Source: Syntrophaceae bacterium UBA2188
GTDB taxonomy: Bacteria > Desulfobacterota > BSN033 > UBA1163
Direction of reading: 5' to 3'
DNA: 64,000 nucleotides
NCBI GenBank assembly: GCA_002327985.1
Contig: DCVM01000012.1
Coordinates: 29-64,028, forward strand
Shown here: positions 4,840-29,195 of the stretch, piece after piece
Layout of the letters: every line of letters begins with the position of its first letter
How positions within the stretch are numbered: the first letter of the stretch is position 1
Program-made: the position numbers and the translations under genes
The notes under the pieces: model-generated
Database searches by the model: none
Told to the model about the DNA's origin: nothing
Seen by the model: only the letters and a program-made list of their open reading frames with translations

Positions 4840-5065
4840 ATTTGAACCTCCTCAAAGGCTCCATTGAAAAGTGAAAGGCTGACCATCGCGTTGCCGCTTC
4901 CCTTGAATTCGCCCAATATGTAAACCGGTCATGGAGACAACTTATTTGGATTGATTATTTAACAGCCTTATCGAAGTATTGTGTCAGTCTCTATACTGCT
5001 TGCCAACCTTATCATGCCATCAGACGATGAAGATTTCTTTCGTTTCCTTTATACATAAAGGGGGT

Positions 5066-6673: not shown

Positions 6674-6801
6674 ATTCGATCCTTCCCAAATATTACATAG
6701 AAAAGTCACCCTTTAATAATACTTTTGGCACTTTTCCTGAATTTGATAAAACTGTAAAACAATGACGGATGTAACTGATCTAAAATAGGGGCCTTGCCGG
6801 C

Positions 6802-9168: not shown

Positions 9169-10233
9169 TTATAACTCTGGAGAGACCAAAATCTTACAAT
9201 GCTCCAATTTACGCTCTCCCATCAATTCTTTTATCCCTTTTTCCAAAATATCATCCAGTTTTATCTTTGCACTGATCAATTCAGGATCACACCTAACTTT
9301 TTTACTGGTCAAGAGAGAGATCGCGGGAGGGAATTCATCCACATAACCTTGACTTGCGATGATTGTTTTCTCACGGAAAAATAGATTGAAGAATGGGAAA
9401 TCACAGGTAGTTGGCATGGTCCCTACTTCCACAATGGTTGAAGCTTTTCCAGAAACAGTTTCAGACAACAACATTGCATCACTCTTGCCAGCACATTCAA
9501 ACACCACATCAGCTCTCCTTCCTTCAGTCAGTTCAGCAATAGCTCTCCCTGGATCGACCCCTTTTGGATTGATCACTTCCGTTGCACCCAGTTCTTTAGC
9601 CATTTGACCTCTATTAGAAAGCATCTCAAAAACAATGATCTTACCCGCTCCGCAAGCGTTTGCAACCTGCATGGTCAATAAACCAATGGGCCCGGCACCT
9701 ACGATCGCTACGTTAGCCCCGAGTTCCATGCGGCTTCTTTTTACAGCACGGACAGCGCAAGCCAGAGGTTCGGTAAAGGCCCCCATTTCATATGTAACCT
9801 CATTAGGCAATCTATAAACATTGTCATTGGACACGACAATAAATTCAGCAAACGCCCCATCTGCTGCCCCTCCGATACTGCCAAGGATGGCACATTGAAT
9901 ATGTTGACCTTTTTTGCAGTAGTAACACTTGTAGCATGGAATCGTAGGCCTTACCGTCGCTTTATCACCGACTTGGACCCCATGGACATTATCTCCAATT
10001 TTAACCACTTGGCCAGAGAATTCATGACCTCCGGTAATAGGAGCCATCTTCCCTGTGCCAGGATGGGGCTTTTTGACCGGCAAGAGGCCAGCTCCTCCCT
10101 GATACTCTTGAACATCAGCACCGCAAATGCCGCACCATTTCACTTTTATCTTAACCTCCCCTGGACCTGGTTCTGGTTCTGGGATGTTTTCTAATCTCAT
10201 ATCCTTGCCGCCATAATAACGTAACGCCTTCAT
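9169..10233 (-). CDS. Zn-dependent alcohol dehydrogenase, MDR family (butanediol/sorbitol dehydrogenase-like)
   Basis: GICGADV / GHEFSG zinc-ligand motifs, structural-Zn Cys cluster CYKCYYC, NAD fold VAIVGAGPIG. Confidence 0.8.
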   Translation of the reverse strand: MKALRYYGGKDMRLENIPEPEPGPGEVKIKVKWCGICGADVQEYQGGAGLLPVKKPHPGTGKMAPITGGHEFSGQVVKIGDNVHGVQVGDKATVRPTIPCYKCYYCKKGQHIQCAILGSIGGAADGAFAEFIVVSNDNVYRLPNEVTYEMGAFTEPLACAVRAVKRSRMELGANVAIVGAGPIGLLTMQVANACGAGKIIVFEMLSNRGQMAKELGATEVINPKGVDPGRAIAELTEGRRADVVFECAGKSDAMLLSETVSGKASTIVEVGTMPTTCDFPFFNLFFREKTIIASQGYVDEFPPAISLLTSKKVRCDPELISAKIKLDDILEKGIKELMGERKLEHCKILVSPEL

Positions 10234-10282: not shown

Positions 10283-11272
10283 TCAATTCTTAGCTTGTCT
10301 TGATCTAACGATATCTTTGACAGCAGAAATGATGTCAGCCTCCTGTGGTAGGACAGCATTCTCCACAACTGTCCCCCAGGGGATTGGCGTAAATGCCGCT
10401 CCAATACGTCTTATCGGAGCATCTAAATAATCAAATAAATGTTCCACAACGCTCGCCGCTATCTCAGCCCCAAACCCACTTATCTTCACCGCCTCGTGGG
10501 CAATTACCAATTTCCCCGTTTTTTTGACAGAGCTTTCAATCGTCTTCATATCTAAAGGAATTAACGTCCGAAGATCGATAATTTCAATGTTGATTCCCTC
10601 CCTGGCAAGTTTCTCAGCGCTCGTTGCAACTTTAAAAAACAACTGCCCCCATGTAACAACAGTGACATCGGACCCCTCTCTCTTGACATCCGCTTGACCT
10701 AACGGAAGAGTATATTCTTCTTCGGGAATTTCCCCTTTTGCCCGTAAAAACTTATGTTCAATAAAAATGATCGGGTTGTCATCCCTAATGGAAGATTTGA
10801 GAAGGCCTTTCACATCATATGGGGTGCTTGGATATACGACTTTTAAACCAGGAACATGACAAAACCAGGATTCTAAACTCTGCGAGTGACCAGGACCAGC
10901 GCTTACTCCACCCCCCCCCAATGTACGGAAAACAACAGGTGCTTTACACTGACCGGCAGACATGTATCGCATTTTTGCCGCTGAATTTACAATAGAATCC
11001 ATAGCCAAGGCTGTAAAATCCATAAACATGATTTCTGCCACCGGTCTCAGTCCAGAAATCGCTGCCCCAACTGCGATACCGGCGATAGCTGACTCACTAA
11101 TAGGAGTATCTATTATTCTTTTACTGCCAAATGCTTCAAACAAACCCTTGGTAGCGTTAAAACTTCCGCCTGAGATTCCAACATCTTCACCCATGACGAT
11201 AACGCTATCGTCTCTTGCCAACTCCTCTCTTAATGCCTCATTGATCGCTTTAACATATGTAATTTCTTTCAT
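10283..11272 (-). CDS. TPP-dependent 2-oxoacid/acetoin dehydrogenase E1 component beta subunit (AcoB-like), copy 1
   Basis: Transketolase-like pyrimidine-binding N-terminus MKEITYVKAINEALREEL...VIVMGEDVG, 329 aa. Confidence 0.85.
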   Translation of the reverse strand: MKEITYVKAINEALREELARDDSVIVMGEDVGISGGSFNATKGLFEAFGSKRIIDTPISESAIAGIAVGAAISGLRPVAEIMFMDFTALAMDSIVNSAAKMRYMSAGQCKAPVVFRTLGGGGVSAGPGHSQSLESWFCHVPGLKVVYPSTPYDVKGLLKSSIRDDNPIIFIEHKFLRAKGEIPEEEYTLPLGQADVKREGSDVTVVTWGQLFFKVATSAEKLAREGINIEIIDLRTLIPLDMKTIESSVKKTGKLVIAHEAVKISGFGAEIAASVVEHLFDYLDAPIRRIGAAFTPIPWGTVVENAVLPQEADIISAVKDIVRSRQAKN

Positions 11273-11289
11273 TTAGATACCCCAGGTTA

Positions 11290-12252
11290 TTAAACATACA
11301 CATTCTGAAATGCTTGCTCCCTACTTGCCACCGGACTGCTTTTTGCAAATTGAATGGCCTCTTCGATCTCTCTCTTTACGGATTCATCCAACTCATTCAT
11401 TGATTCAAGGGTTAGAATTTTTTCATCCATGAGTCGCTTTTGAAACTTACTCAAAGGATCGACCCTACGTGCCTCTTCGATGTCTTTTGGGTCTCGATAT
11501 TTTTGGGGATCGCCGATATAGTGTCCCTCCCAACGCCTTACCTTACATTCTATTAATGTTGGACCATCCCCTTTTCTCGCCCTCGCTATTGCCTCTCTTG
11601 CTACCTCATAAACTTCCAAAATATCCGTGCCATCCACGACTTTCCCTAACATGTTGTATCCTTCGGCCTTCCGCCATATGTCAACTTGGGACGCGGTCGC
11701 TTTTTGGGGGGTAAATTGTGCCCAACCATTATTTTCAACGACAAAGACGATAGGTAATTTCCATAGCGAAGCGATATTCAAGCTTTCGTGGAAATTTCCT
11801 TCATCCACAGTACCGTCCCCGAAAATACAGATAACCACCTGATCGGACTTTCTGTATTGGCAAGCAAGCGCTACTCCAACAGCAACAGGAATTTGACCCC
11901 CAAGAGTTCCACTTTGTCCAAGTATCCCATATTTCAAATCGAAATAGTGCATCTCACCAGATATCCCTTCACAGGGGCCATTCTTTCTCCCTAACGCCTC
12001 AGCCATAAATCGCTTTAGGGGGACCCTTTTTCCAATGATTATTGCGCGCCCCCGGTGAGTGTTATTGATGTAGTCTTCTGGTTCAAGATATGCAGTGACG
12101 CCCACACCAACGGCCTCTTGCCCGAGATTAGAGTGAAACCAACCCGCAACTTCACCCGTAGTCATTAACTCAATGAGCTTTTCCTCTAATCTCCTTGTTT
12201 TCAACAAGAGTGTAAAAAGTTCCTTTTTCTTCTCATTGCTGACTTCACCCAT
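11290..12252 (-). CDS. TPP-dependent acetoin/2-oxoacid dehydrogenase E1 component alpha subunit (AcoA-like), copy 1
   Basis: TPP-binding GDGTVDEGNFHESLN...VENNGWA motif, 320 aa (AcoA-sized, shorter than BCKDH/PDH E1alpha). Confidence 0.85.
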   Translation of the reverse strand: MGEVSNEKKKELFTLLLKTRRLEEKLIELMTTGEVAGWFHSNLGQEAVGVGVTAYLEPEDYINNTHRGRAIIIGKRVPLKRFMAEALGRKNGPCEGISGEMHYFDLKYGILGQSGTLGGQIPVAVGVALACQYRKSDQVVICIFGDGTVDEGNFHESLNIASLWKLPIVFVVENNGWAQFTPQKATASQVDIWRKAEGYNMLGKVVDGTDILEVYEVAREAIARARKGDGPTLIECKVRRWEGHYIGDPQKYRDPKDIEEARRVDPLSKFQKRLMDEKILTLESMNELDESVKREIEEAIQFAKSSPVASREQAFQNVYV

Positions 12253-12274
12253 ATCGAACCTCTCTTCACCATTT

Positions 12275-13414
12275 TTATCCTGCAGAAAAAAGTTGTTTCG
12301 CTACTATCTCCCGATGGAAATCACTATCGCCAAACGTAATTTCAGCCATTCTACCCATTCTGAAATAAAGGGGCATGTCATGATCCTCGCAATATCCCAC
12401 TCCACCGATGACCTGATGCCCTAAAGCGACAATTCTTCTAAATGCATCATTGCACCAAGCCTTTGCAATCGACACTTCCTTTTCGTAGGGGATGTCCTCA
12501 TCAATCATCCAAGCCCCCTTGTAGGTGACCCACCTACAACCATCAAGGTCAACCAACATATTGCTACAATGATGCTGGATGGCCTGAAAACTACCTATGG
12601 GCTTTCCAAACTGAACCCTTTTCTTTGCATAGGAAACAGCCATATCCAGAACCTGTTGGCCTCCCCCAACCATCTCAGCACATTTGGCCAGGGCTGCTTT
12701 TTGCAGAATTTTTTTTAAGAGTCCCCAACCTTTATTTAATTCACCAAGCACATTTTCCTTGGGTACTCTTACTTTGTTAAAGAAAATTTCATATTGTTTA
12801 TCTTTTGCCATGGTATTAAGAAGCGTATATTTTATTCCTTCGGCTTTTCCATCTATGACAAAAAGTGTAATTCCATCTTCCGGATCTTTTCCCTTTTCGG
12901 TTCTGGCGACACATAACAGGTAATCCGCAACATGGGCATTCGGAACGAACAATTTAGTCCCATGAACGATGAAGCTTTCTCCTTTGGCTTTGGCAGTTAC
13001 TGTAATTGAAGATGGATCATAATCACTTTCGGATTCGGTTATGGCCAAAGTGGCGATTAATTCTCCTTTAGCTATTTTAGGCAACAGCTCTTGCTTTTGT
13101 TGTTTGGTACCAGCTTCTAATATGGTTAATCCTCCTAAAACAACTGTTGAGAAAAAGGGACCTGGAAGGCAGGCACGCCCCATCTCCTCAAGTAACAAAA
13201 TCAATTCCATGAAGTTTCCACCTGTGCCACCAAACTCCTCTGGGAAGATGAGTGCCATCCAACCTAACTCTGCCATTTGGCGCCACAACTCATCTGAATA
13301 ACCTTTCGTGCCTTCAACCATCTCCCTTAATAAGGAACTAGGACATTTATCCATTAAAAATTGTCGAGCACTTTTTCGTATTAATTGTTGCTCTTCGGTA
13401 AATTTAATATCCAT
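12275..13414 (-). CDS. acyl-CoA dehydrogenase
   Basis: 379 aa ACAD fold; N-terminal MDIKFTEEQQLIRKSARQFL, C-terminal FGDSDFHREIVAKQL typical of ACAD. Confidence 0.85.
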   Translation of the reverse strand: MDIKFTEEQQLIRKSARQFLMDKCPSSLLREMVEGTKGYSDELWRQMAELGWMALIFPEEFGGTGGNFMELILLLEEMGRACLPGPFFSTVVLGGLTILEAGTKQQKQELLPKIAKGELIATLAITESESDYDPSSITVTAKAKGESFIVHGTKLFVPNAHVADYLLCVARTEKGKDPEDGITLFVIDGKAEGIKYTLLNTMAKDKQYEIFFNKVRVPKENVLGELNKGWGLLKKILQKAALAKCAEMVGGGQQVLDMAVSYAKKRVQFGKPIGSFQAIQHHCSNMLVDLDGCRWVTYKGAWMIDEDIPYEKEVSIAKAWCNDAFRRIVALGHQVIGGVGYCEDHDMPLYFRMGRMAEITFGDSDFHREIVAKQLFSAG

Positions 13415-13461
13415 TTCTTAACACCTCATGTAAACTGTATAAGTTGAAAAATTAGCCACAT

Positions 13462-14637
13462 TTAATTCCTCGGCAACCCAAGACCTCGTGTAGCCGTGAG
13501 ATTTCTAATAATTTCACTGGTACCTCCACCGATGGTATAGACGACAGACATCCGGCATAATCTTGATATCTCACCTCTCAGTGGAACCCACTTAGAATCC
13601 TCATCTAAACGACCAAAGAACCCCAAAATCTCCATGCCGGTATATGCAAGACGCTGGTACAACTCACTTATAAATAGCTTGCTGATTCCTGACTCGTAGT
13701 CCGGAGATCGCCCTTCAAACAACATTGCGAATGCGCGATATTCAAGGCATTTTGAAACTTCGATCTCAATCGCCATTTGAGCTAACTTGTTTCTCACCAA
13801 GGGATCTTCAGTCATCAACTTTCCATTTCTTCGCGTTTGCCTGGTATATTCAATAATTCTATTTAAGATGGGTACGAGCCTTTCTGTCTGAGACATCATT
13901 AAACGTTCATAATTTAACGCCTCTATCATGTAGTAAAATCCTCTGTTCTTTTCACCCACTAATCGGTTTTTAGGGACTCTTACATCGTCATAGAATACCT
14001 CATTGGTTCTTTCACCCCCCAGTGTCCATATTGGTGTAATGGTGATACCTGGACTCCGTTGATCCACGACAAATAGACTGATGGACTCATGTTTAGGTGC
14101 ATTCAAATCAGTTTTTGCTGCTAACCAATGATAGTCTGCGTAATGAGACTCTGTATTAAATGTTTTTTGTCCGGTGATTAGATAACAATCCTCTTTTTCT
14201 ACAGCGACCATTTGCATAGCTAACAAATCAGACCCAGCCGGAGGTTCAGTATACCCTAAGCCAAATTCTATCTCCCCTCTTGCAATTCGAGGTAGAAATT
14301 CTCTTTTCATCTCTTCAGAGCCATGGTGAAGGATGGTGGGTCCAGACATAAACCGGGCCACTTCATTGGGTATATGGACCTCATGCCGAGCAAACTCCTG
14401 TACAAGAATGAAATCGTGGATGATCGAGCCGTCACTCCCACCGTACTCCTTAGGCCAGCCCAATCCCAACCAACCTTTCGCCCCTAACTTAAGAGCAAAG
14501 GCTCGGCCTTCTGGCCCTAAGCCTTTATCGATTGCATACTGCCGGCGAATTTCGTCGGTTAATTCTTTATCTAAGAAATCGCTCACTTCCTGTCGAAACT
14601 TCTCTTCTTCCGGTGTCGACGTCAAATTGAAATTCAT
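13462..14637 (-). CDS. acyl-CoA dehydrogenase
   Basis: 391 aa; ACAD N-terminal helical domain MNFNLTSTPEEEKFRQEVSDFL, C-terminal IGGGTSEIIRN. Confidence 0.85.
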   Translation of the reverse strand: MNFNLTSTPEEEKFRQEVSDFLDKELTDEIRRQYAIDKGLGPEGRAFALKLGAKGWLGLGWPKEYGGSDGSIIHDFILVQEFARHEVHIPNEVARFMSGPTILHHGSEEMKREFLPRIARGEIEFGLGYTEPPAGSDLLAMQMVAVEKEDCYLITGQKTFNTESHYADYHWLAAKTDLNAPKHESISLFVVDQRSPGITITPIWTLGGERTNEVFYDDVRVPKNRLVGEKNRGFYYMIEALNYERLMMSQTERLVPILNRIIEYTRQTRRNGKLMTEDPLVRNKLAQMAIEIEVSKCLEYRAFAMLFEGRSPDYESGISKLFISELYQRLAYTGMEILGFFGRLDEDSKWVPLRGEISRLCRMSVVYTIGGGTSEIIRNLTATRGLGLPRN

Positions 14638-14734
14638 AAACTCCCCTCAACCCTTTCATATTTTTTTAAAATCAATAAATTTCTTTACTTTTTTCCCATT
14701 TTTACCGATCTCTTCCCCTTTCTCTAAATCATTT

Positions 14735-15406
14735 TTATCCAACGATGCCCAACCCCCTTAAGATAAAATCCATCAAAAAATCAATATTTTTCTTGTTTGA
14801 TCTTTTCTTAAGATTCCATCCCCTTAAGGCAAGGAAGACTGAAAGAAAAGCAATAAGATTTGCTGAAAAATCTTTATCTGTTTTGATTTTTTTCTTCTCA
14901 TATGCCTTTTCCAATACCTGGCGCCAAAAGCCAACGATAAGCTTGTCGTCGAGTGACAGGACCTCATGCAAATATCTCTTTTCCATATATTTGCTCTCGG
15001 TGTAAACAAATAACAATAATTTTTTGTTCTTCGTTATAAACTCAATGGTTCGACGCAGGGCAATTTCCAATAATTTCAAAGGGTCCTTGATTTTCTCAAC
15101 ACCAGACCGTTCGATATTTTCATACCATTTCATTGCAATATATTTGTTCACCAGAAATAAGACATCATCTTTTGAGGATATATAATGGTACAATTTCCCC
15201 ATTGACATCCCACATTCTTGCGCTATTTCACGTATCGTTGTAGGATGAAATCCCTTCTTAAAAAATAATCTACAGGCCCCTTCGATGATCTGCTCATGTC
15301 TGATATCAATCAGTTTTTCATTTTTAGCAGATAATTTAACCAAACCTCTTTGGTGGGACGCTTTAGTGTGTTTGCTACTGACCGATTTTCCTCCAGACGT
15401 TTCCAT
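14735..15406 (-). CDS. TetR family transcriptional regulator
   Basis: HTH region FFKKGFHPTTIREIAQECGMSMGKLYHYISSKDDVLF; embedded between lipB and the ACAD genes; start uncertain (overlaps lipB by about 30 nt). Confidence 0.75.
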   Translation of the reverse strand: METSGGKSVSSKHTKASHQRGLVKLSAKNEKLIDIRHEQIIEGACRLFFKKGFHPTTIREIAQECGMSMGKLYHYISSKDDVLFLVNKYIAMKWYENIERSGVEKIKDPLKLLEIALRRTIEFITKNKKLLLFVYTESKYMEKRYLHEVLSLDDKLIVGFWRQVLEKAYEKKKIKTDKDFSANLIAFLSVFLALRGWNLKKRSNKKNIDFLMDFILRGLGIVG

Positions 15407-16103
15407 AGAAATCTCCTATCGTTGTTTCATATGGCCCTGCCCATTCTCTTCTCTCTCCGACAAGCTCCACCTGGACATCGAAAACTTCCGAAAAAAAGTT
15501 TATTAATTTCTTTGTTACTGTTTCCATCGATATATTTTTTGCAAGAATCTCAACAATAGAGGTCGCTTTTTGCCCAAGAATGCCACAGGGATTGATGTTT
15601 AGGAAATGTCCCAATTTAGGTTTTACGTTGAGGGCAAACCCATGCATCGTAATCCATTTTCTTATGCTCAGTCCGATGGAAGCTATCTGTTCTTCATTTA
15701 CCCAGATCCCGGCATGGTCGTTTTTTCGGTTGGCAGGGATACAGAAACTGTTTAAGGTTCTTAGGATGACTTCCTCAAGATCTCGAACGTATTGATGAAT
15801 ATCTCTATTCCTTTCTTTCAGGTTTAAAATCGGATAACCCACCAATTGCCCAGGACCATGGTAGGTCACATCGCCCCCTCTATCAGTGAAAAACAAAGAA
15901 ATATGCTCTTTGGAAAGTTCTTCTTGGGGGACAAGGACATGATCTAAGTCGCCGGATTTACCGACGGTAATGGTCGGTGGATGCTCCAAAAGGAGAAGCA
16001 TATCTGACATCTTTCCATCCATTCTTTCACGATGAAGCTTTCTCTGTAAGAACGTGGCGGCTTGATACTCTATTAATCCGAGCTGATAAACAATGCATTT
16101 CAT
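15375..16103 (-). CDS. lipB: octanoyltransferase (lipoyl(octanoyl) transferase)
   Basis: LipB motifs LLLEHPPTITVG, GGDVTYHGPGQLVGYPI; likely start at MKCIVYQLG. Confidence 0.75.
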   Translation of the reverse strand: MKCIVYQLGLIEYQAATFLQRKLHRERMDGKMSDMLLLLEHPPTITVGKSGDLDHVLVPQEELSKEHISLFFTDRGGDVTYHGPGQLVGYPILNLKERNRDIHQYVRDLEEVILRTLNSFCIPANRKNDHAGIWVNEEQIASIGLSIRKWITMHGFALNVKPKLGHFLNINPCGILGQKATSIVEILAKNISMETVTKKLINFFSEVFDVQVELVGERREWAGPYETTIGDFYGNVWRKIGQ

Positions 16104-16135
16104 AGATGGACGATTACTCCGTTGTCCCCTCTTCT

Positions 16136-17515
16136 TCAGGGAATAGCGCCTCTTGCCACTTCCCAAAATATTTCTGATAAAGTCGGATGAAGATGCAAGA
16201 CACTACTGAGGTCCTCAAGGGTCATCTCTAATTTCATTGCCACCGTTGCCTCTGCAATCAGTTCATTCGCCTGGGGTCCTATCATATGCACCCCTAATAT
16301 CTGCCCATATTTAGTATCGGTAATGATCTTAACCATCCCAATTCTTTGCCCAAGGATCGTCGCAAGGCTGTTGCCAGCAAATGGATACTTTTCGACTTTT
16401 ACCTGGCGCCCTTGCACAATGGCCTCCTCTTCTGTCAAGCCCACACCCGAAATTTCGGGAAAGGTATGGGTCCCGTATGGAATAGCTTTGTAATCCACTT
16501 CTGTATATTTGCCCATAGCATTTTCTGCAGCCACCATTCCTTCAACATAAGCGACATGGGTCCACATTTGCTGCATGGTCACATCACCTGCGGCAAGTAT
16601 GGTCGGAACGTTTGTCTGCATGCGTCTGTTCACAGCGATACCTTTTTTGTCATTTAGGGTAATCCCCACTTTATTCAAATCAATTTCTTTGAGGTTGGAC
16701 ACCCTTTCTTCTGCAACCGCCAGATGTTGAGTGTCTAATTGTATCTCTTTGCCTTTAACGCTCACTCCCACACTCTTTTCCTCTGATCCCTTATCTTCTA
16801 CTTTATCTACATGTGCTTCCGTGTAGGTCTTAATCTTGCTATTCTCTAACTCCTTCTCAAAAATAGAGACTATCTCTCGATCAAGTTGATGGAGTATCTT
16901 TGGAGACTCTTCAAGGAGGGTGATTTGGGTTCCCAATTTAGAGAAGATGGTTGCAATAGAAGCCCCTATGAAGCCGCCCCCGATGATTATCATGGATTTA
17001 GGAACCACTTTAAATTCAAGCAATTCATTTGGAGTGATGATTTTTTCTCCACCGGGAATCGAAGGTTTCTTCCATTCTGACCCTGTCGCAATGATAATCT
17101 TTCGGGCCGTGATTTCCTTCCTACCTCCATCCTTCAATTGCACCTCAAGCTTTGATGGTGAAAGAAGTCTCCCAATACCTTCAATGACCTCCACCCCATT
17201 GGCTGAAAAACTTTGTTTTAGCCCTGTTAATAAGGTCCTAATGATGATATTCTTGCGTGAGATCATTTTCGAAAGGTCAATTTCTGTCTCTTTGTAATTT
17301 ACCCCATAGTCTTTGGCATATCTGGTTAAATCAACCATCTCCGCCATCCTTAATAGGGCCCTGACAGGGATACAGCCCCTGTTTATACAAGTTCCCCCCA
17401 AAGCATCGTTTTCTATAAGCGTAGCCTTTCCACCGAGCTGAGATACTTTTAACGCAGCCTGATATCCAGCGGATCCACCACCAAGTATGACGACATCTCT
17501 TTCTTCCATCTTCAA
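16136..17515 (-). CDS. lpdA: dihydrolipoyl dehydrogenase (E3)
   Basis: FAD fold VVILGGGSAGY, redox-active disulfide GGTCINRGCIP, 459 aa, C-terminal HAHPTLSE. Confidence 0.9.
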   Translation of the reverse strand: MKMEERDVVILGGGSAGYQAALKVSQLGGKATLIENDALGGTCINRGCIPVRALLRMAEMVDLTRYAKDYGVNYKETEIDLSKMISRKNIIIRTLLTGLKQSFSANGVEVIEGIGRLLSPSKLEVQLKDGGRKEITARKIIIATGSEWKKPSIPGGEKIITPNELLEFKVVPKSMIIIGGGFIGASIATIFSKLGTQITLLEESPKILHQLDREIVSIFEKELENSKIKTYTEAHVDKVEDKGSEEKSVGVSVKGKEIQLDTQHLAVAEERVSNLKEIDLNKVGITLNDKKGIAVNRRMQTNVPTILAAGDVTMQQMWTHVAYVEGMVAAENAMGKYTEVDYKAIPYGTHTFPEISGVGLTEEEAIVQGRQVKVEKYPFAGNSLATILGQRIGMVKIITDTKYGQILGVHMIGPQANELIAEATVAMKLEMTLEDLSSVLHLHPTLSEIFWEVARGAIP

Positions 17516-17548
17516 TTCCCTTCCATTTTCTTCTGATTCCTATTTATG

Positions 17549-18862
17549 TTAAACCAGCAGGAGACCGGATGTTGCTATGAGTTCTTTAAGCCTAAACAAG
17601 AAATTCTCCGCCACAGCACCATCAATCACTCTATGATCAAAGGTTAAACTGAAAGGTATCATCCGCGCGATCACAATCTGCCCATCTCTCACCAAAGGCC
17701 TCTCTATAATCGGACCAGCTCCTAAAATCGCTGATTCTGGCTGATTGATGATTGGGGTCTGAAAATAGCTAACCCCCCTCCCCCCAATACTCGTCAGTGT
17801 AAATGTCCCCCCTGTCACATCGTCAGGCATAAGCTTACCCGCTTGCGCCTTCTCAACCATCTCTTTGATCATCTTCGATATCTCGACAAGACTCTTCTGA
17901 TCGGCATTCTTGATCACCGGCACAATTAACCCCTTCTCCCCTTTTTCACCGAGGCTGACAGCCACCCCAATGTTGATATCTTCCCAAACCTTTATTTCGT
18001 TATCAATCAGACTGCTATTTAACAAAGGATGATCTTTAAGGGCTTTGGCAATGGCAAAGACCAGTAAATCCGTATAGGTGATTCTCACCCCAACGGTTCT
18101 CTCCTGGCTTAATAAATTCTCCCGAAGTTTCACAAAATCCGTCGCATCAAACTCACCCATCACTGTAAGTTGAGCGGAAACGGATAAACTCCGAACCATA
18201 TGCTCAGAAATCGATTTTCTCATCCCTTTCAGGGGTATCGTGGCTTTCACTCTTTTACCTAAAGAAACCTCGGGAGGTAATTGGATCGGTTCCACCTTTT
18301 TCTTTTCTTCTATTGCTTTCTCGACATCCTCCCTTGTAATCCTTCCCCCAGGACCCGTCCCCAGCACTTTCGATATATCGATCATGTGCTCCTCTGCCAT
18401 TTTACGGGCAACTGGAGATATCCGAATACGCTCTCCTTCGCTAGGCATCTCTTTGGACGCTCCCCCAGTAGCTATTTGTGTTGAAAATTGAGCGACTTCA
18501 CCGGAGGGAGCTTCTTGCCCTTTCACTCCGCTTGCGTATATTTCTTTTGGTGGCTCCTTCTGAAGCCTTTCAAATTCATCCTTTGTTTCGACGATTAGGC
18601 CAACAATCCTGGCTACTTCTACTTGAATCCCTTCTTCCACAAGAATGTGTAAAAATCCCGAACCTTCAGCGACAACATCCCAACCTGTCTTCTCTGTCTC
18701 AATCGCTAAAACCACACTCCCTTTTTCCACCCAATCCCCTTCTTTTGCCTTCCATTCAATCATTGTTGCATAAACCATATTCATCCCAAGTTTAGGTATC
18801 ACTATTTGAGCTGCCACGTTCATTCCTCCTGATTTGATAGTGGGGACCAGTCCATAATCCAA
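17549..18862 (-). CDS. dihydrolipoamide acyltransferase (E2, AcoC-like)
   Basis: Lipoyl domain with ETEKTGWDV, peripheral subunit-binding domain, catalytic DHRVIDGA; exact start uncertain (a GTG 15 codons in has an AGGAGG RBS). Confidence 0.85.
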   Translation of the reverse strand: MDYGLVPTIKSGGMNVAAQIVIPKLGMNMVYATMIEWKAKEGDWVEKGSVVLAIETEKTGWDVVAEGSGFLHILVEEGIQVEVARIVGLIVETKDEFERLQKEPPKEIYASGVKGQEAPSGEVAQFSTQIATGGASKEMPSEGERIRISPVARKMAEEHMIDISKVLGTGPGGRITREDVEKAIEEKKKVEPIQLPPEVSLGKRVKATIPLKGMRKSISEHMVRSLSVSAQLTVMGEFDATDFVKLRENLLSQERTVGVRITYTDLLVFAIAKALKDHPLLNSSLIDNEIKVWEDINIGVAVSLGEKGEKGLIVPVIKNADQKSLVEISKMIKEMVEKAQAGKLMPDDVTGGTFTLTSIGGRGVSYFQTPIINQPESAILGAGPIIERPLVRDGQIVIARMIPFSLTFDHRVIDGAVAENFLFRLKELIATSGLLLV

Positions 18863-18914
18863 ACTTACACAAAAAATGGCTCGCTATGCTTGCGAGGCAC
18901 AATAGGGTGGATCA

Positions 18915-19979
18915 TCAATTTTCCTTTTTGCCGTAACCAAGCCTTTCTCCCATGTGCCGACCTGGTTTGAGTAATTCTAACGGTTTCACTTGAAAAGACT
19001 CCTTTATCCCCAAGACTTCTGTGATAGCATCTGCTATATCCTGGGGTTGTGGTAAAGCATAGCACTCCATGAAACCGCCGGGGATCGGGGAATTCGCAGC
19101 CCCAACCCTTTTAATTGGCGCATCCAGGTAATCGAAACCTTTTTCCATAAACTGCATTCCGATCTCAGCTCCCACACTACAGCGCAGCGTGTCTTCGTCA
19201 ACAATAACCAATCGATGCGTCTTTTTAACAGACGATAGGATGGTCTCGATGTCAAGGGGTTCAAGCGTTCTTGGGTCAAGAACCTCCACATCCAGACCTT
19301 TCTCCTGTAATTGGTCAGCCACTTGCAGTGTCATAAAGACCATTAGCCCTGTGGCAACAACAGTCACATCTTTCCCCTCTCTCTTGATATCTGCCTGTCC
19401 GAAGGGGATGGTGTACTCCTCCTCAGGCACAAGGCCCGATGTCCCTGCGCCTACAAGAATCCGATGATAAAGGACGACAGTAGGGTTATTATCTCTGATT
19501 GCCGTCTTTAAAAGTCCTTTGAGGTCATAGGGAGTGGTGGGGATGGCAAGCTTCAATCCCGGGGTATGCATGATATAGCCCTCAAGGCATTGGGAATGCT
19601 CTGGGCCACCACCTCCGAGATATCCCCCAATTCCGGCCAAGAAAGTGACAGGAATGGTAACCTTACCCCCATGGATGTAACGCCACTTGGCTGCTTTATG
19701 AAACAGTTCATCAGCAGCAGGCATGAAGAAATCAACAAATCGGGAGTGGACGATCGGTCGATAACCAGCCAACGCCGCCCCCACACCACAACCCAGGATT
19801 CCCGGTTCGGCTATGGGCACCTCTCTTAACCTCTTCGTACCGAACTTTTCTACCAAACGCACGGGCGTTAATATTGGATCAGCCTGGACATTCAAGCCGA
19901 TGATGAATACTGTTTCATCCCTCGTCATTTCTTCTTCAAGAGCTTCAATAATGGCCTGTACGAATTTAATCTCTCGCAT
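18915..19979 (-). CDS. acetoin-dehydrogenase-type E1 beta subunit, copy 2
   Basis: MREIKFVQAIIEALEEEM... transketolase-like beta subunit, 354 aa. Confidence 0.85.
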   Translation of the reverse strand: MREIKFVQAIIEALEEEMTRDETVFIIGLNVQADPILTPVRLVEKFGTKRLREVPIAEPGILGCGVGAALAGYRPIVHSRFVDFFMPAADELFHKAAKWRYIHGGKVTIPVTFLAGIGGYLGGGGPEHSQCLEGYIMHTPGLKLAIPTTPYDLKGLLKTAIRDNNPTVVLYHRILVGAGTSGLVPEEEYTIPFGQADIKREGKDVTVVATGLMVFMTLQVADQLQEKGLDVEVLDPRTLEPLDIETILSSVKKTHRLVIVDEDTLRCSVGAEIGMQFMEKGFDYLDAPIKRVGAANSPIPGGFMECYALPQPQDIADAITEVLGIKESFQVKPLELLKPGRHMGERLGYGKKEN

Positions 19980-19999
19980 TTTTTCAATCTTCCTTTCTA

Positions 20000-20983
20000 T
20001 TATTCAGCATAGAGAGCTTTCTTTAATATTTCCTTCGGATCGGTCGGCATTGGATCTGCCCAAGCCAAACGATCTGCCTCCTCCATCTCGTTTGCTGCCC
20101 CACCATCGATCTTTTCTATATCCACCTGGGTGAGAACTCCTTCTTTCAGTAACCGTTTTTGCGCCAGTTTAATCGGATCCCTTTTTCTCCAAACCTCGAT
20201 TTCCTCTTGAGTACGAGGCCTTCCTAATAAGGTATCGGGAAGGCCTACGGCGTGAGGCTGAATGCGATAGGTCTTGCATTCAATCAGGCTAGGCCCTTCG
20301 TCCGCTCTCGCCCGATCTATCGCGGTCTGGACTTCCTTGTGGACTGCAAAAACATCCTGCCCATCCACGACTTTTGCAGGGACACCATAACCAAAGCCTA
20401 AATCAGCAAAATCGTCTTTTGGATGAATTATTTTAACAGGTGTATTTCCCATAATTTGATTGTTCTCGACAATAAATAGATTAGGAAGCTTCCACGTTGC
20501 AGCCATGATCATTGATTCATGGAAAGTCCCCCGTGCATAGGTCCCCTCTCCTTCGATCACCATGACTACCTGCTTTTTTCCCCGCAATTGCGCCGCAAGC
20601 CCCATTCCGACAGCAAGGGGAAAATGCCCACCGAGTGTCCCGCTCATGCCCGGAATGCCCAGCTTCATATCACACGTATGAAATCCACTAACACCATCGC
20701 AGCAGCCGGTAATTCTACCATAATGTTCTGCCAAGATGATCCTGGCAGGGAGGCCCTTAATCAGAGTCTTACTGATGGCGTGCCCCCGGTGAGAAGGAAA
20801 AAGATAGTCATCCTCCCTTAGAAAACTACATGCACCGACTCCTACAGCCTCCTGACCCTCACCACTATGAAAAAAGGTTGAAATTTTACCCGTCAGCAAG
20901 GCTTTCACCATCGTCTCATCCAGCTTCCGGACCCGCACCAGATTTGTGTAGAGTCGTATCTTTTGCTCCTTGGTCAGATCCAT
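20000..20983 (-). CDS. acetoin-dehydrogenase-type E1 alpha subunit, copy 2
   Basis: TPP motif GEGTYARGTFHES...VENNQ; start placed at MDLTKEQ (RBS AAGGAGGGG) by homology with copy 3. Confidence 0.8.
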   Translation of the reverse strand: MDLTKEQKIRLYTNLVRVRKLDETMVKALLTGKISTFFHSGEGQEAVGVGACSFLREDDYLFPSHRGHAISKTLIKGLPARIILAEHYGRITGCCDGVSGFHTCDMKLGIPGMSGTLGGHFPLAVGMGLAAQLRGKKQVVMVIEGEGTYARGTFHESMIMAATWKLPNLFIVENNQIMGNTPVKIIHPKDDFADLGFGYGVPAKVVDGQDVFAVHKEVQTAIDRARADEGPSLIECKTYRIQPHAVGLPDTLLGRPRTQEEIEVWRKRDPIKLAQKRLLKEGVLTQVDIEKIDGGAANEMEEADRLAWADPMPTDPKEILKKALYAE

Positions 20984-21152
20984 AGCCCCTCCTTTTATGC
21001 GTTTTTTGTCCCTAATCATTTTAAATAAACTTTTGTACGAAATATCTTAATCCACACCTTGAATATCAAGGAACTTTGTTCACCTTTTCCGCAATGTCCT
21101 TGTAGTCATGGATGCGGAGGATGATATCTCCCATCCGCTTTATCTCCGTACT

Positions 21153-22217
21153 CTAATTTTGTTTTACCTTTGTGATCCCTAAATCACCGAATGCTTTAAC
21201 AGCGTCAAATCCAACTTTTTCTTTCTTCATATCACTAATATCCATATCTTTGCCCAAGACTTTCAGAATAGCAGCAGCGATGTCTGGGGGTTGAGGTAAA
21301 ACATGTTCCTCTAAGTACCATCCTGCGGGAATGGGACAATTGGCGGCAGCCACCCTCTGGATCGGAGCGTCAAGGTAATCGAAAGCCTTCTCCATAATTT
21401 GCATGCCGATCTCCCCAGTCACACCGCATCGCAAGGTATCTTCATCGACGATCACCACTCGCTTCGTCTTTTTTACAGAAGTGACGATCGTGTCAATATC
21501 AAATGGCTCAAGCGTCCGTGGGTCAATGACCTCTACACTAATTCCCCTCTCCTGGAGTTTATTCGCCACCCCAAGACTCAAATCAACCATAAATCCTACT
21601 GCAACCACCGTGACATCTTTTCCTTCTTTTTTAACATCCGCCAAACCAAACGGGATCGTATACTCTTCATCAGGGATCTCACCTTTTTTAGTTAATAAAA
21701 GCTTATGATAAAGGTAAACTACAGGATCATCATCTCGAATGGCTGTTTTTAAGAGGCCCTTCGCATCATAGGGTGTCGTCGGAATAGCAATCCTCAATCC
21801 TGGTGTATGCATGATGAGGGATTCTACGGACTGTGAATGTTCCGAATCAGACCGTATATACCCGCCGGTGGATGCCATATAAACAATGGGCATTTTCAAC
21901 TTCATACCATGAGTAAACCGCCATTTGGCTGCCTTGTTACATATTTCATCTCCTGCGATGAGAAAGAAGTCGCTAAACATCAGCTCAGCAATGGGGCGAT
22001 ACCCCGCTAAGGCTGCTCCTACAGCTGCCCCTGCAATAGCATTTTCACTTATTGAGGTATCTAATACTCTGTCTTTACCAAATTTCTCAAATAAACCGTT
22101 TGTATGGGGAAACGTCCCTCCCCTCACACATTCTCCAAAGATAAAAACAGTCTCGTCTCTTTTCATCTCTTCCAAAAGAGCCTCATTAATGGCCTGAATA
22201 AATCTAACCTCTCTCAT
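21153..22217 (-). CDS. acetoin-dehydrogenase-type E1 beta subunit, copy 3
   Basis: MREVRFIQAINEALLEEMKRDETVFIFG; roughly 65% identical to copy 2 by eye. Confidence 0.85.
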   Translation of the reverse strand: MREVRFIQAINEALLEEMKRDETVFIFGECVRGGTFPHTNGLFEKFGKDRVLDTSISENAIAGAAVGAALAGYRPIAELMFSDFFLIAGDEICNKAAKWRFTHGMKLKMPIVYMASTGGYIRSDSEHSQSVESLIMHTPGLRIAIPTTPYDAKGLLKTAIRDDDPVVYLYHKLLLTKKGEIPDEEYTIPFGLADVKKEGKDVTVVAVGFMVDLSLGVANKLQERGISVEVIDPRTLEPFDIDTIVTSVKKTKRVVIVDEDTLRCGVTGEIGMQIMEKAFDYLDAPIQRVAAANCPIPAGWYLEEHVLPQPPDIAAAILKVLGKDMDISDMKKEKVGFDAVKAFGDLGITKVKQN

Positions 22218-22236
22218 TTTGGCTCCCCCTTTCTTT

Positions 22237-23211
22237 TCATTTCCAATAGAGAACCTGCTTCAATATCTGAGGATCGGGTGCTGGACTCTCAGTCGCAAAT
22301 CTCTCTGCCTCCTCCATCTCCTCTATTGCTTCTCGATCGATCCGGTCTACATCTGCCTGGGTTAGGACACCCTCTTTGAGGAGTCGCTCCTGAAAAAGGT
22401 TTACCGGATCCTTTTTCACCCAAGGTTCGATTTCCTCCGGAGACCTGAGTCCTGCACATCTTTTATCCACCATGCCATAGGTATGGGGTTCGATACGATA
22501 AGTCTTGCATTCTATCAAGCTCGGCCCTTCTCCAGCTCTCGCTCTCTCTATAGCAGTTTGAAATGCTTCAAAGACTGCAACGACATCCTGTCCGTCAACC
22601 ACTACTCCAGGCATTCCATAACCAAAAGCTAAATCCGCCATGTTCTCTTTTGGAAAAATATCGCTGGTCGGGGTGAAAACCATATACTGATTGTTTTCAA
22701 CTCCCCACACAATAGGAAGCTTCCAATTTGCCGCCATCAGTGCAGCTTCATGGAAAGTCCCCCGACCATAAGTCCCGTCTCCCTGTATACAAACTACCAC
22801 CTGTCCTTTAGCTCGCATCTTGGCAGCAATACCCATTCCGGCAGCCAGGACAAAGTCACCTCCTAATGATCCGCTTAGACCAGGGGCACCATATTCCATA
22901 TCCGCAACATGAAGACAGCCCATACCCTGGCATGCACCGCTATTTTTGCTGAAGTGCTCTGCGATAAAGGCCCTGGGTGAGATACCTTTTGGGATTACCG
23001 TAGTAATACCGTGCCCTCGATGACAAAAAAAGATATAGTCATCCTTTCTTAAAAAAGTGGTAGCTCCAACACCAACCGCTTCTTGACCTTTTTGGCTACT
23101 CCAGTGCCCGCAAACCTTCCCAGACAAAACGCCTTTCACCATTATTTCATCAAGCTTCCGGACTCGCACCAGATTCGTATAGAGCTTCATTTTCTGTTCC
23201 TTTGTTAGCAT
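22237..23211 (-). CDS. acetoin-dehydrogenase-type E1 alpha subunit, copy 3
   Basis: GDGTYGRGTFHEA...VENNQ TPP motif; start at MLTKEQ with RBS AGGAGG 8 nt upstream. Confidence 0.8.
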   Translation of the reverse strand: MLTKEQKMKLYTNLVRVRKLDEIMVKGVLSGKVCGHWSSQKGQEAVGVGATTFLRKDDYIFFCHRGHGITTVIPKGISPRAFIAEHFSKNSGACQGMGCLHVADMEYGAPGLSGSLGGDFVLAAGMGIAAKMRAKGQVVVCIQGDGTYGRGTFHEAALMAANWKLPIVWGVENNQYMVFTPTSDIFPKENMADLAFGYGMPGVVVDGQDVVAVFEAFQTAIERARAGEGPSLIECKTYRIEPHTYGMVDKRCAGLRSPEEIEPWVKKDPVNLFQERLLKEGVLTQADVDRIDREAIEEMEEAERFATESPAPDPQILKQVLYWK

Positions 23212-23260
23212 ATATCTACCTCCTAACCACATTTCTCTAAAAATTAGTTTCGATTTATAA

Positions 23261-24220
23261 TCATGTGTGTGAAAAGAGTTTTAATCCCTTCGCCAACCCA
23301 TGGAATCTATAAATCCAACCTCCGTCTAAACCGCCAACGGTTATATAGCCCTCATCTGTTTCTGGCTTGAATGCTAAATTGGTAGTCAGAAGGTTCTTTC
23401 CTTCATCTCGACCTGGTATTAAAACCTGAGCCACCGGAATAGCTGCTTTATTTAGGACCAGAATTCTTCCATGCCCTGCAAGAGTTTGATAGACGTTACC
23501 CTCTGAATCGACAGCGTTCGAGTCAGGCATTCCATCTCCCATAAAATTGTAAGCAACCGTAGCCGGAGGGTGAGCAAGCGATATTCCATCTTGCTGTATT
23601 TTTATATGAATTAATCGATTCAAAGCTGACTCAGCCACCCAGAGTTCATACCCAAAGGGAATGATGCTTGGCATTGAAACTCCTTTTGGGACTAGAGAAA
23701 TTCCATTGGCCGTCACAAGATTTGTAACAATCGGGTGGACTGTCTTTAGATCTGCCGAAAAACGGTAAACACCACCCGTTAGACTGAAGGCGTTTTTAAA
23801 GTCTCCGAGATCGGTGACGTAGAAGTTCCCATCATAGTCAAAGACAATATCATCCGGAGCTATGGGTTTACCTTCGTACCTTACTTTTATTTCCCTCATA
23901 TTACTCCCATCCGGATTCATCGCCATCACTTGCCCTGAAGGACAAACCAAATACAACCTTCCATCCTTATGGATAGCACATCCAGCAGCCATGTAGGCTG
24001 GGTTGCTGAAGATTGTACTCATCTTTTTATCTGGTGTGATCTTAATGACACGGCCTTCAACGACCGAAGTGATGAAGAGGTTTCCTTCTCGGTCGAATGC
24101 AGGAGCTTCAAGAATGGATGGATAGGGATTGATTTGTAACCAACATTCCGCCATGATTGTATAAATACTTTCTTCGGATGGTGGGATAAGAACTAAATCT
24201 TTTTTCGCTTTTTCTCCCAT
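23261..24220 (-). CDS. SMP-30/gluconolactonase/LRE-like beta-propeller protein (putative lactonase)
   Basis: 319 aa; repeated hydrophobic-G-D/N blade pattern (DREGNLFIT, DYDGNFYVTD, DSEGNVYQT) typical of SMP-30/strictosidine-synthase-like 6-blade propellers. Confidence 0.6.
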   Translation of the reverse strand: MGEKAKKDLVLIPPSEESIYTIMAECWLQINPYPSILEAPAFDREGNLFITSVVEGRVIKITPDKKMSTIFSNPAYMAAGCAIHKDGRLYLVCPSGQVMAMNPDGSNMREIKVRYEGKPIAPDDIVFDYDGNFYVTDLGDFKNAFSLTGGVYRFSADLKTVHPIVTNLVTANGISLVPKGVSMPSIIPFGYELWVAESALNRLIHIKIQQDGISLAHPPATVAYNFMGDGMPDSNAVDSEGNVYQTLAGHGRILVLNKAAIPVAQVLIPGRDEGKNLLTTNLAFKPETDEGYITVGGLDGGWIYRFHGLAKGLKLFSHT

Positions 24221-24274: not shown

Positions 24275-25063
24275 TTAGGCAATGAAGCCTCCATCCTGGA
24301 CAAATGTTTGCCCTGTCACATAACTCGACGCATCAGAGGCTAACCAAATAGCTAATCCCTTAATTTCATTTGGCTCAGCTACCCGTCCCATGGGTGTAAA
24401 TTTAGCGAATCTTTGAAGGTAAGGTTCTGCTACCTCTCGGGGTATAAACGTGGACTTGGTATCATGAGTCCCTGGTGCAATCGCATTGATTCGAATCCCA
24501 TCCTTAGCATAGGCAACTGCCGCATGCCTTGTGAGAGCAATAATACCAGCCTTAGACGCCCCATAAGCATATATATTGGGGGCAGACCATTCCCAACACC
24601 CAGCCATCAGCCCGGCTACAGAAGCCGTGCTAATGATAGACCCTCTTTTCTGCTTTAGCATCACGGGTAAAACGGCGCGCATGCAGAGAAATGTCCCCTT
24701 CAAATTAATGTTAATGCATGCATCCCAATCTTCAATCACAAGTTCATGAAGTCTTTTTTCAATGGAATGGCACCAACCGGCATTATTGAACAAAATATCG
24801 ATGGTTCCGAATCCTGATACCGTCTGATTGACCATGCGCTCGATCTGGTCCGGTTTGGATACATCCGCCTCAATGGCTATGGCACGATGTCCAAACCTCT
24901 TTATGTCATCAACGGTTTCATCGGCAAACTTTTTGTTGATATCAGCACAGGCAACATCCGCCCCAAACTCAGCCATGGCCTCGCAATATGCCCGGCCAAG
25001 CCCGTGACCTCCTGCTGTAATCAGGGCAACCCTTCCTGAAAGATCAAAAATGTTCTTTTCCAT
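24275..25063 (-). CDS. SDR family oxidoreductase
   Basis: ITAGGHGLGRA Rossmann motif, YGASKAG catalytic Tyr/Lys. Confidence 0.85.
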   Translation of the reverse strand: MEKNIFDLSGRVALITAGGHGLGRAYCEAMAEFGADVACADINKKFADETVDDIKRFGHRAIAIEADVSKPDQIERMVNQTVSGFGTIDILFNNAGWCHSIEKRLHELVIEDWDACININLKGTFLCMRAVLPVMLKQKRGSIISTASVAGLMAGCWEWSAPNIYAYGASKAGIIALTRHAAVAYAKDGIRINAIAPGTHDTKSTFIPREVAEPYLQRFAKFTPMGRVAEPNEIKGLAIWLASDASSYVTGQTFVQDGGFIA

Positions 25064-27356: not shown

Positions 27357-27413
27357 CTTTATCTCCTTTCTTTCAGCTTGGATTCATCTATGGTTAAACC
27401 TGTGATGGAGCCT

Positions 27414-28937: not shown

Positions 28938-29107
28938 AACCCCTCCCTCCTTCTTTTTTCTCTCCATGGTTTGATAAAAAAACAATAATCTCTTCCTCTT
29001 CCCTATCCCAATTCGACCCTCAATAATTCCACTTCACCCCCTTTCCTAAAATAAACTTGCCCGTGTAGCGTGCCCGTAAATCCTCTATAGCCTCAATCTC
29101 TTTCTTT

Positions 29108-29195
29108 CACCCCACCCTCATCCTCACTCCATCAAGGGGGAGAGGGATCTTTGGCCTCTCCCCCCTCTGGAGTGGGTTAGGGGTGAGGAAATGAG
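29108..29195. repeat. long imperfect inverted repeat / GC-rich stem-loop in the RND-DUF1302 intergenic spacer
   Basis: Core 10-bp perfect stem GGGGGAGAGG (29136-29145) / CCTCTCCCCC (29155-29164) around a 9-nt loop, flanked by further imperfect complementarity (cactcca / tggagtg; cctcatcctcac / gtgaggaaatgagg). Confidence 0.5.

Follow-up and report, generated by a model that had tools for sequence, protein, structure and literature searches.

Strict anaerobes seldom have lipoamide-dependent dehydrogenase complexes and usually oxidise 2-oxoacids via ferredoxin-dependent enzymes. Here we analysed a 64-kb stretch of DNA, referred to as the window, from Syntrophaceae bacterium UBA2188 (contig DCVM01000012.1), an uncultivated member of the Thermodesulfobacteriota related to sulfate reducers, in which three pairs of genes for the alpha and beta subunits of thiamine pyrophosphate (TPP)-dependent E1 enzymes lie in one island with a single acyltransferase (E2), a single dihydrolipoyl dehydrogenase (E3) and LipB. 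In the same phylum, the most familiar lipoamide complex that comes with a lipB of its own is the acetoin dehydrogenase (Aco) of the anaerobe Pelobacter carbinolicus, whose acoABCSL cluster carries both lipB and acoS (PMC3543383). A core shared by different E1s is known from the hybrid of the dehydrogenases for pyruvate (PDH) and for 2-oxoglutarate (ODH) in Corynebacterium and Mycobacterium, where AceE and OdhA share one AceF/Lpd core (PMC7568260, PMC10581250). A first reading of the sequence, hereafter the original prediction, had described the three window pairs as acetoin-dehydrogenase-type E1s on one core and had stated that the aco operons of some anaerobes carry a lipoate-attachment gene, as is the case in P. 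carbinolicus (PMC3543383). From its genes, the island appears to encode an unusual variant of the pyruvate/acetoin dehydrogenase complex, for which Corynebacterium provides the precedent of E1s sharing an E2.

Two modules and a probably shared E2/E3 core

Comparison with related loci indicates that two conserved modules, each found separately and self-contained in other genomes, are fused in the island. Module A consists of an envelope set of outer-membrane and transport proteins, short-chain dehydrogenases/reductases (SDRs), a lactonase-like beta-propeller protein of the SMP-30/gluconolactonase-like (SGL) family, E1, E2, E3 and LipB. Its gene order recurs in loci L004, L006/L007 and L019. L004 has the envelope set, three SDRs, an SGL protein, three E1 pairs, one E2, one E3 and LipB, and L006/L007 and L019 have a single E1 pair each. 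The E2, E3 and LipB of the window are 66, 65 and 57% identical to those of L004 and 57, 55 and 55% identical to those of L006. Module B consists of a TetR regulator, two acyl-CoA dehydrogenases (ACADs) that would form a heteromeric enzyme, E1 alpha1/beta1 (pair 1), a medium-chain dehydrogenase/reductase (MDR), an enoyl-CoA hydratase (ECH), a Cys-rich protein and an SDR. It recurs in five loci (L104, L105, L106, L107 and L108), to which its ACAD, E1, MDR, hydratase, Cys-rich and SDR proteins are 57-83% identical, except for a doubtful 32% match to the Cys-rich protein in L106. Within this range, E1 alpha 1 is 64-74% and the MDR 61-76% identical to the module-B orthologs, and the ACADs are 62-76% identical to their orthologs in L103-L108. 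TetR heads the module-B operons of L104 and L105.

All five module-B loci have their own E2 directly after the MDR/ECH genes, together with an E3 (split into two gene calls in L108), and two of the five also have LipB and a radical-SAM (LipA-like) gene. In L104 and L105, the E2 and E3 sit between the hydratase and the Cys-rich protein. In the window, the hydratase and Cys-rich genes abut with nothing between them, and tblastn searches with foreign queries revealed no second copy or remnant of E2, E3 or LipB in the 64 kb. Pair 1 instead lies directly downstream of the E2-E3-LipB genes of module A, on the same strand. Since the module-B E2 and E3 are present in five loci and missing here, pair 1 most probably uses the core of module A. 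It is thus likely that one core serves all three E1s, for which the strongest support is that pair 1 has no cognate E2/E3 and lies beside the module A core. All genes from approximately 128 to 39444 were called on the minus strand, and those of the island are as follows.

25914-32669, minus strand: DUF1329, DUF1302, HAE3/MMPL resistance-nodulation-division (RND) transporter and BNR/Ycf48-like protein (module A envelope set)
24275-25063 and 25082-25852, minus strand: two SDRs (module A)
23261-24220, minus strand: SMP-30/gluconolactonase-like (SGL) protein, predicted cytoplasmic (module A)
22237-23211 (or 23232), minus strand: E1 alpha 3, PF00676 (6.9e-63); module A core pair
21153-22217, minus strand: E1 beta 3, PF02779 and PF02780, with a C-terminal extension of ~30 amino acids (aa)
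20000-20983 (or 21019), minus strand: E1 alpha 2, PF00676; module A paralog with the GEG variant of the TPP-binding motif
18915-19979, minus strand: E1 beta 2, PF02779 and PF02780; module A paralog with a divergent N-terminal loop
17549-18823 (open reading frame to 18862), minus strand: E2 acyltransferase with one lipoyl domain (PF00364), a peripheral subunit-binding domain (PSBD; PF02817, about residues 146-181) and a catalytic domain (PF00198)
16136-17509, minus strand: E3 dihydrolipoyl dehydrogenase, TIGR01350 at 442 bits (cutoff 409)
15375-16103, minus strand: LipB octanoyl/lipoyl transferase, TIGR00214 at 172 bits (cutoff 84) and PF21948
14735-15406, minus strand: TetR-family regulator, PF00440; marks the start of module B
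12275-13414 and 13462-14637, minus strand: two ACAD genes with Pfam ACAD domains (module B)
11290-12252, minus strand: E1 alpha 1, PF00676 (module B)
10283-11272, minus strand: E1 beta 1, PF02779 and PF02780 (module B)
9169-10233, minus strand: MDR Zn-dehydrogenase, PF08240 and PF00107 (module B)
8356-9144, minus strand: enoyl-CoA hydratase (module B)
7619-8245, minus strand: Cys-rich conserved protein with no family match (module B)
6802-7563, minus strand: SDR (module B)
128-6709, minus strand: two acyl-CoA ligases, a BaiCD/FadH-like Old Yellow Enzyme (OYE) flavoenzyme and an SDR

Domains were called by Pfam and NCBIfam profile scans. Together with the tblastn searches over the window, these scans bear out the inventory of the original prediction, namely three E1 pairs, one E2, one E3, LipB and TetR. 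The two ACADs and the MDR dehydrogenase also lie where it had placed them, on the minus strand. Its proposal that one E2/E3 core serves several E1s gains support from the five loci in which the pair-1 orthologs have the E2/E3 that is missing here. Pair 1 itself is no satellite of the system of pairs 2 and 3 and belongs to the separate conserved module B. The gene calls are identical in independent assemblies and annotations (GCA_002402385.1, contig DHFU01000081.1; JGI; ENA). TopA of this contig has numerous metagenomic relatives at 87-90% identity, of which the single named one belongs to the Thermodesulfobacteriota. A promoter and terminator scan returned counts equal to those of shuffled controls and thus gave no operon boundaries.

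The predicted proteins have the general architecture of a 2-oxoacid or acetoin dehydrogenase complex, comprising alpha2beta2 TPP E1s, an E2 with lipoyl-Lys, PSBD and catalytic domain, and an FAD-dependent E3. By direct reading of the sequences, the E1 alphas contain the TPP-binding motif (GDG/GEG...NN), and the E1 catalytic residues are present (the His of alpha and, in beta, both the Glu of 'PI(S/A)E' and the 'HSQ'). The DHRxxDG motif of the E2 catalytic domain is also intact (DHRVIDG). The three heterotetrameric TPP E1s therefore look catalytically intact. The GEG variant in alpha2 was considered as a possible defect and rejected, as it is conserved in the ortholog L004_a1 and in the alpha subunit of the human branched-chain 2-oxoacid dehydrogenase (BCKDH), BCKDHA.

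Genomic context and proposed function

We consider it an even call that the island is a catabolic one in which two modules are joined and three E1s work on one E2 core by acyloin-type cleavage. This type of cleavage, which we infer from the genomic context, is the activity we favour. A search with an alignment of alpha2/3 relatives gave 78 species-representative genome loci, in which the context was surveyed. Of the 51 loci of the alpha2/3 type, 33 had an SDR or MDR homolog within ~6-8 kb, compared to 6 of the 27 loci with other E1 types. The pattern of a dehydrogenase followed by an E1 matches the logic by which butanediol is converted to acetoin and acetoin is then cleaved, and so favours acyloin-type cleavage. 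The window MDR is 35% identical to the butanediol dehydrogenase of P. denitrificans.

Hydrolases also recur beside members of the clade to which pairs 2 and 3 belong: SGL in the window and its close relatives, a metallo-beta-lactamase (MBL)-fold protein in L004 and L008, and a dienelactone hydrolase beside a clade E1 in the cultured Novosphingobium malaysiense (L059). The arrangement of SGL and two SDRs is syntenic in L004 and L006. A role of the SGL protein as a periplasmic esterase was considered, and the absence of a visible signal peptide in the protein speaks against it. The two ACADs are distantly PimC/PimD-like, with hits to the pimC and pimD NCBIfam models far below cutoff, pimC being the best for the 391-aa ACAD. 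The ligases, OYE enzyme and SDR at 128-6709 probably perform downstream steps of the same island.

The envelope set lies directly upstream of the other module A genes and is syntenic with the alpha3-type module in L004, L006/L007 and L019. The four families of this set are cofit in Pseudomonas and Shewanella. P. putida needs them on Tween 20 and on butyl stearate, and a lactonase is part of its BNR-RND operon (10.1101/072470; 10.1101/2020.07.04.188060).

Together, these features suggest the following scheme. An alcohol, a diol or a hydrolysed ester or lactone, probably hydrophobic, would be imported and converted by the SDR/MDR dehydrogenases to carbonyl substrates, of which each E1 would take a different one from its neighbouring dehydrogenases. 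The E1 would cleave the C-C bond beside the carbonyl, as in the acyloin cleavage of acetoin, with release of an aldehyde. All three E1s would dock on the PSBD of the single E2, which LipB would lipoylate and the single E3 would reoxidise with NAD+. The acyl half would pass via lipoamide to CoA, and the ACAD, hydratase, SDR, ligases and OYE enzyme would then carry out beta-oxidation-like steps.

A bolder version of this scheme is possible, and we advance it only tentatively. The island may encode a machine for C-C cleavage that depends on lipoamide but not on oxygen, with interchangeable E1 'heads' mounted on a single E2 core. Each head would open a different alpha-hydroxyketone and yield acyl-CoA directly. 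The alpha-hydroxyketones would come from hydrophobic vicinal diol or lactone-derived substrates, which could include alicyclic rings or mid-chain diol lipids. In that case, both E1 clades would represent new functional families that are widespread in the Thermodesulfobacteriota and Dehalococcoidia of anoxic sediments.

Classification of the E1 enzymes

To place the E1s, bootstrapped neighbour-joining trees were built for the alpha and beta subunits separately, with few references. The Aco references came from verified plasmid aco operons: P. denitrificans (acoXABC-bdh-acoR), Mycetohabitans (acoR-acoXABC-lipA), Acinetobacter (lipA..acoABC) and E. faecalis (sigma54-lpdA-E1-E2). The PDH references were genes named pdhA by the Prokaryotic Genome Annotation Pipeline (PGAP) and the PDB sequences of human PDHA1 and G. 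stearothermophilus PdhA. The BCKDH references were the PDB sequences of human BCKDHA and P. putida BkdA1, and one BCKDH matching the P. putida structure 2bp7 (E = 2.6e-167). NCBIfam has no AcoA/AcoB model and the PDB has no Aco E1 structure; membership of the Aco family was judged by trees and markers.

All three pairs fall in the superclade of mitochondrial-type PDH and Aco, and BCKDH together with Gram-positive PDH forms an outgroup to the window alphas with a bootstrap of 100. The E1 pairs thus lie apart from BCKDH, one of the two groupings that the original prediction had named as counting against it. Pairs 2 and 3 belong to a large clade (bootstrap 84% for alpha and 96% for beta) that derives almost wholly from the genomes of uncultivated organisms (metagenome-assembled genomes) and excludes both the Aco references and mitochondrial-type PDH. 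Pair 1 falls with its orthologs in a separate module-B clade, in which beta1 groups with L103-L105 at 100% bootstrap.

The window alphas are 33-40% identical to AcoA, 29-36% to PDH and 25-30% to BCKDH. Alphas 1, 2 and 3 score 327, 245 and 241 bits on TIGR03182 (cutoff 394) and 246, 215 and 220 bits on TIGR03181 (cutoff 411), and thus stay below both cutoffs. On TIGR03182, the AcoA references reach 324-347 bits, compared to 492 bits for a true PDH alpha. This puts alpha1 in the AcoA range. The size argument of the original prediction, by which the alphas are AcoA-sized and not PDH-sized, is invalid, as the TIGR03182 PDH model has 315 positions and aligns end to end. A gene on a Priestia aryabhattai plasmid (L017, 3884-4867) that PGAP names pdhA scores 396.7 bits on this model, just above the cutoff of 393.85; it carries an Aco-like HRGH and adjoins a sorbitol phosphotransferase system operon, and its name may be an over-call.

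Two empirical markers were derived from these references. The first is the His of the alpha motif 'HRGH', which is present in all four AcoA references and replaced by Tyr ('xYRxx') in all nine alpha references of 2-oxoacid enzymes. All three window alphas have the His (THRGR in alpha1, SHRGH in alpha2 and CHRGH in alpha3), as do 74 of 88 alphas from related loci. The second is an insertion of 8-14 residues after 'GED(I/V)' in the beta subunit, found in all four AcoB references.

Several observations weigh against the proposed scheme of a shared core with acyloin cleavage. The AcoB insertion is missing in beta1, beta2 and beta3, and beta2 and beta3 are even two residues shorter at the insertion point; as judged from the sequences, the two markers therefore point in opposite ways. 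Of three alpha columns that separate Aco from 2-oxoacid enzymes, two side with the latter, and HRGH may reflect common descent and not determine the substrate. In the trees, no window pair nests within the reference AcoA/AcoB, and in these neighbour-joining trees with few references the Aco reference group itself has a bootstrap of just 59%. Neither E1 clade has a characterised member. No aldehyde dehydrogenase for the aldehyde product was found in the island. The role of the DUF1302/DUF1329/BNR/RND set is debated, with uptake, export and esterase activity all proposed (10.1101/072470; 10.1101/2020.07.04.188060). Finally, the search for another core covered the 64-kb window, and the genome may hold a second E2/E3 elsewhere.

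The operon context also differs from that of aco: the regulator is TetR, acoR and acoX are absent, and the MDR and SDR dehydrogenases are present but generic. Collectively, these comparisons indicate that the E1s are Aco/PDH relatives in two uncharacterised clades outside the AcoAB family, as far as these references define it. The label 'acetoin-dehydrogenase-type' given in the original prediction is therefore retained in part: the HRGH motif and the separation from BCKDH agree with it, and the position outside the Aco clades and the lack of the AcoB insertion, acoR and acoX do not. The placement of the pairs among Aco E1s that this label implies was not obtained in the trees, in which they form two separate clades outside AcoA/AcoB.

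Alternative explanations

The alternative that survives best, which we regard as possible though not the favoured one, is that the three E1s are 2-oxoacid dehydrogenases of unusual specificity that share the core in the same way but release CO2 rather than an aldehyde. Candidate substrates would be 2-oxoacids formed from the hydroxy acids of lactone or ester hydrolysis, or branched or dicarboxylic 2-oxoacids. The recurrent SGL, MBL-fold and dienelactone hydrolases beside clade members would fit such a source, and the overall architecture is that of 2-oxoacid dehydrogenase (OADH) complexes. LivK-type ATP-binding cassette (ABC) transporters beside the module-B orthologs, the two of three discriminating alpha columns, the missing AcoB insertion and the lack of an aldehyde dehydrogenase in the island point the same way. 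However, the window alphas have His where all nine 2-oxoacid references have Tyr, their scores on the PDH and BCKDH models are below cutoff, and BCKDH and Gram-positive PDH form the 100% bootstrap outgroup. Moreover, the clade is enriched for adjacent SDR/MDR genes, and the aminotransferases or 2-hydroxyacid dehydrogenases expected to supply 2-oxoacids are not the pattern.

It is rather improbable that the adjacency of the two modules is incidental, such that the local E2 serves pairs 2 and 3 alone and pair 1 uses an E2/E3 encoded elsewhere, or none. The window E2 and E3 are just 37-41% identical to those that partner the pair-1 orthologs (37-39% for E3), the TetR gene separates the modules, and the search was confined to this contig, all of which would be compatible with unrelated neighbours. 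Yet an E2 follows the MDR/ECH genes in five of five module-B loci, and its clean absence, with no remnants, beside E2, E3 and LipB genes of the same strand would be difficult to account for in another way. The LipB and TetR genes at the module junction also overlap by 32 nucleotides.

Ordinary utilisation of acetoin or 2,3-butanediol (acoABCL plus bdh) with duplicated E1 genes is highly unlikely, despite the name acoA that JGI auto-annotation gives to some homologs, the 35% identity of the MDR to butanediol dehydrogenase and the HRGH motif of the alphas, since the pairs lie outside the Aco reference clade without the AcoB insertion, acoR and acoX are absent, and acetoin would not need the envelope set, ACADs, hydratase, ligases or OYE enzyme. 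The shared core with acyloin-type cleavage thus remains our preferred reading.

Relationships and frequency of multiple E1 pairs

The alpha2 and alpha3 proteins are 59% identical and beta2 and beta3 62%, compared to 41% (alpha) and 46-51% (beta) between pair 1 and pairs 2 and 3. This agrees with the original prediction, which had described pairs 2 and 3 as close paralogs and pair 1 as divergent. In the alpha tree, alpha3 clusters with L004_a3, L006 and L019 (96% bootstrap) and alpha2 clusters with L004_a1/a2. In the beta tree, beta3 groups with its orthologs (83%) and beta2 with L004_b1/b2 (85%). The early split of pairs 2 and 3 is thus supported by bootstraps of 96 and 54 in the alpha tree and of 83 and 85 in the beta tree, indicating that alpha2 and alpha3 had already duplicated before the L004 lineage split off. 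The age of this duplication argues that both copies were kept for different roles. Orthologs of the alpha3-type pair are present in every module-A locus.

The beta subunits of pairs 2 and 3 differ from other E1 betas at both ends. A C-terminal extension of ~30 residues, encoded at the 3' ends of the genes (18915-19010 and 21153-21250), is also found in the L004 and L006 orthologs (351-360 aa) and is not found in beta1 or in the distant L008 (320 aa). The N-terminal loop of beta2 (19850-19979 in the window) is strongly divergent, with 'GLNVQADPILTPVRL' compared to 'GEDVG..GG.F..T.GL' in other E1 betas; it was read off the beta alignment as 'GLNVQADPILT'. Beta3 and the L004 orthologs are intermediate in this loop. 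The divergent loop of beta2 may represent a remodelled active-site entrance.

Two alpha genes were found in four of the 51 loci of the alpha2/3 type, or about 8% (L022, L026, L035 and L058), and in one locus of another type (L097). Three pairs were found only in the window and L004. According to the trees, L026 and L035 hold a separate pair of old paralogs elsewhere in the clade. This suggests that multi-E1 clusters are uncommon, recurrent and retained, and that they are not unique to the window. The multi-E1 design was rightly called uncommon in the original prediction, with the qualification that it recurs, as in the syntenic three-pair locus L004; no characterised example was found in the literature, and a search of the literature returned no paper describing multi-E1 clusters. 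Literature searches for acetoin dehydrogenase in connection with vicinal diols, Dehalococcoidia, sulfate reducers or ring cleavage returned nothing, as did a search for TPP enzymes in Chol11 side-chain degradation.

Other genes in and around the island

The conserved Cys-rich protein of module B is ~208 aa long, has its Cys-rich part in the C-terminal half (CCGSGG, CAHC and CxC) and finds no match in Pfam or NCBIfam. It is 57-60% identical to proteins encoded just after the module-B E3 in L104 and L105, and the 32% match in L106 lies farther downstream. A single-sequence AlphaFold2 model of this protein had a predicted local distance difference test score (pLDDT) of 46 and was unusable.

An RND efflux system of the AcrB/HlyD/OEP type with its own TetR occupies 33063-39444, immediately upstream of the island and on its strand. 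The adjoining efflux system fits a toxic or hydrophobic substrate. Between the efflux operon and housekeeping genes, 39584-41513 encodes a protein of 204 aa that matches no family and a member of the TIGR00375 family with a score below cutoff. Two relatives of module A have further genes. L004 (20790-20984) has a methylmalonyl-CoA-mutase-family gene after LipB and an MBL-fold hydrolase between E1 pairs, and L006 (13400-14398) has a beta-keto-acid cleavage enzyme (BKACE), GcvH and LipA. These extra genes, which are absent in the window, may hint at the products.

Significance and comparison with known systems

Metagenomes contain thousands of relatives of the two E1 clades, in which no member has been characterised. 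If these E1s indeed cleave acyloins or other carbonyls derived from lipids or alicyclic compounds, they would provide a missing oxygen-independent C-C cleavage step in anaerobic carbon turnover. The joining of the two modules and the loss of one E2/E3 set would also be a natural experiment on swapping E1 specificity modules on a common E2 core, which is relevant to enzyme engineers.

The window E1s have the same fold and the same catalytic residues as the E1s of mitochondrial/alphaproteobacterial-type PDH and BCKDH. Their subunit sizes are near those of mitochondrial-type PDH, whereas BCKDH alphas are longer. Unlike PDH, the alphas score 241-327 bits against a cutoff of 394 and have His in place of the conserved Tyr. 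BCKDH and Gram-positive PDH are set apart as the outgroup with 100% bootstrap.

As in the Aco system, a heterotetrameric TPP E1 is combined with a lipoyl E2 and an E3, alcohol dehydrogenases adjoin the E1 genes, the alphas carry the HRGH motif, and the TIGR03182 score of alpha1 falls in the AcoA range. As in the Aco cluster of Pelobacter, a lipoylation gene is part of the cluster in an anaerobe of the same phylum (PMC3543383). In contrast to Aco, the window pairs lie outside the reference clade, the betas lack the AcoB insertion, TetR takes the place of a sigma-54 AcoR, AcoX is absent and there are three E1 pairs. The island is also linked to envelope transport and acyl-CoA genes, which makes it very probable that the substrate is not acetoin.

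The island resembles the PDH-ODH hybrid of Corynebacterium and Mycobacterium in having more than one kind of E1 on a single E2/E3 core, which in the window is suggested by gene loss. The hybrid combines the homodimeric E1p and E1o of central metabolism, with OdhA carrying its own transferase domain, whereas the window would combine three alpha2beta2 E1s of a catabolic kind.

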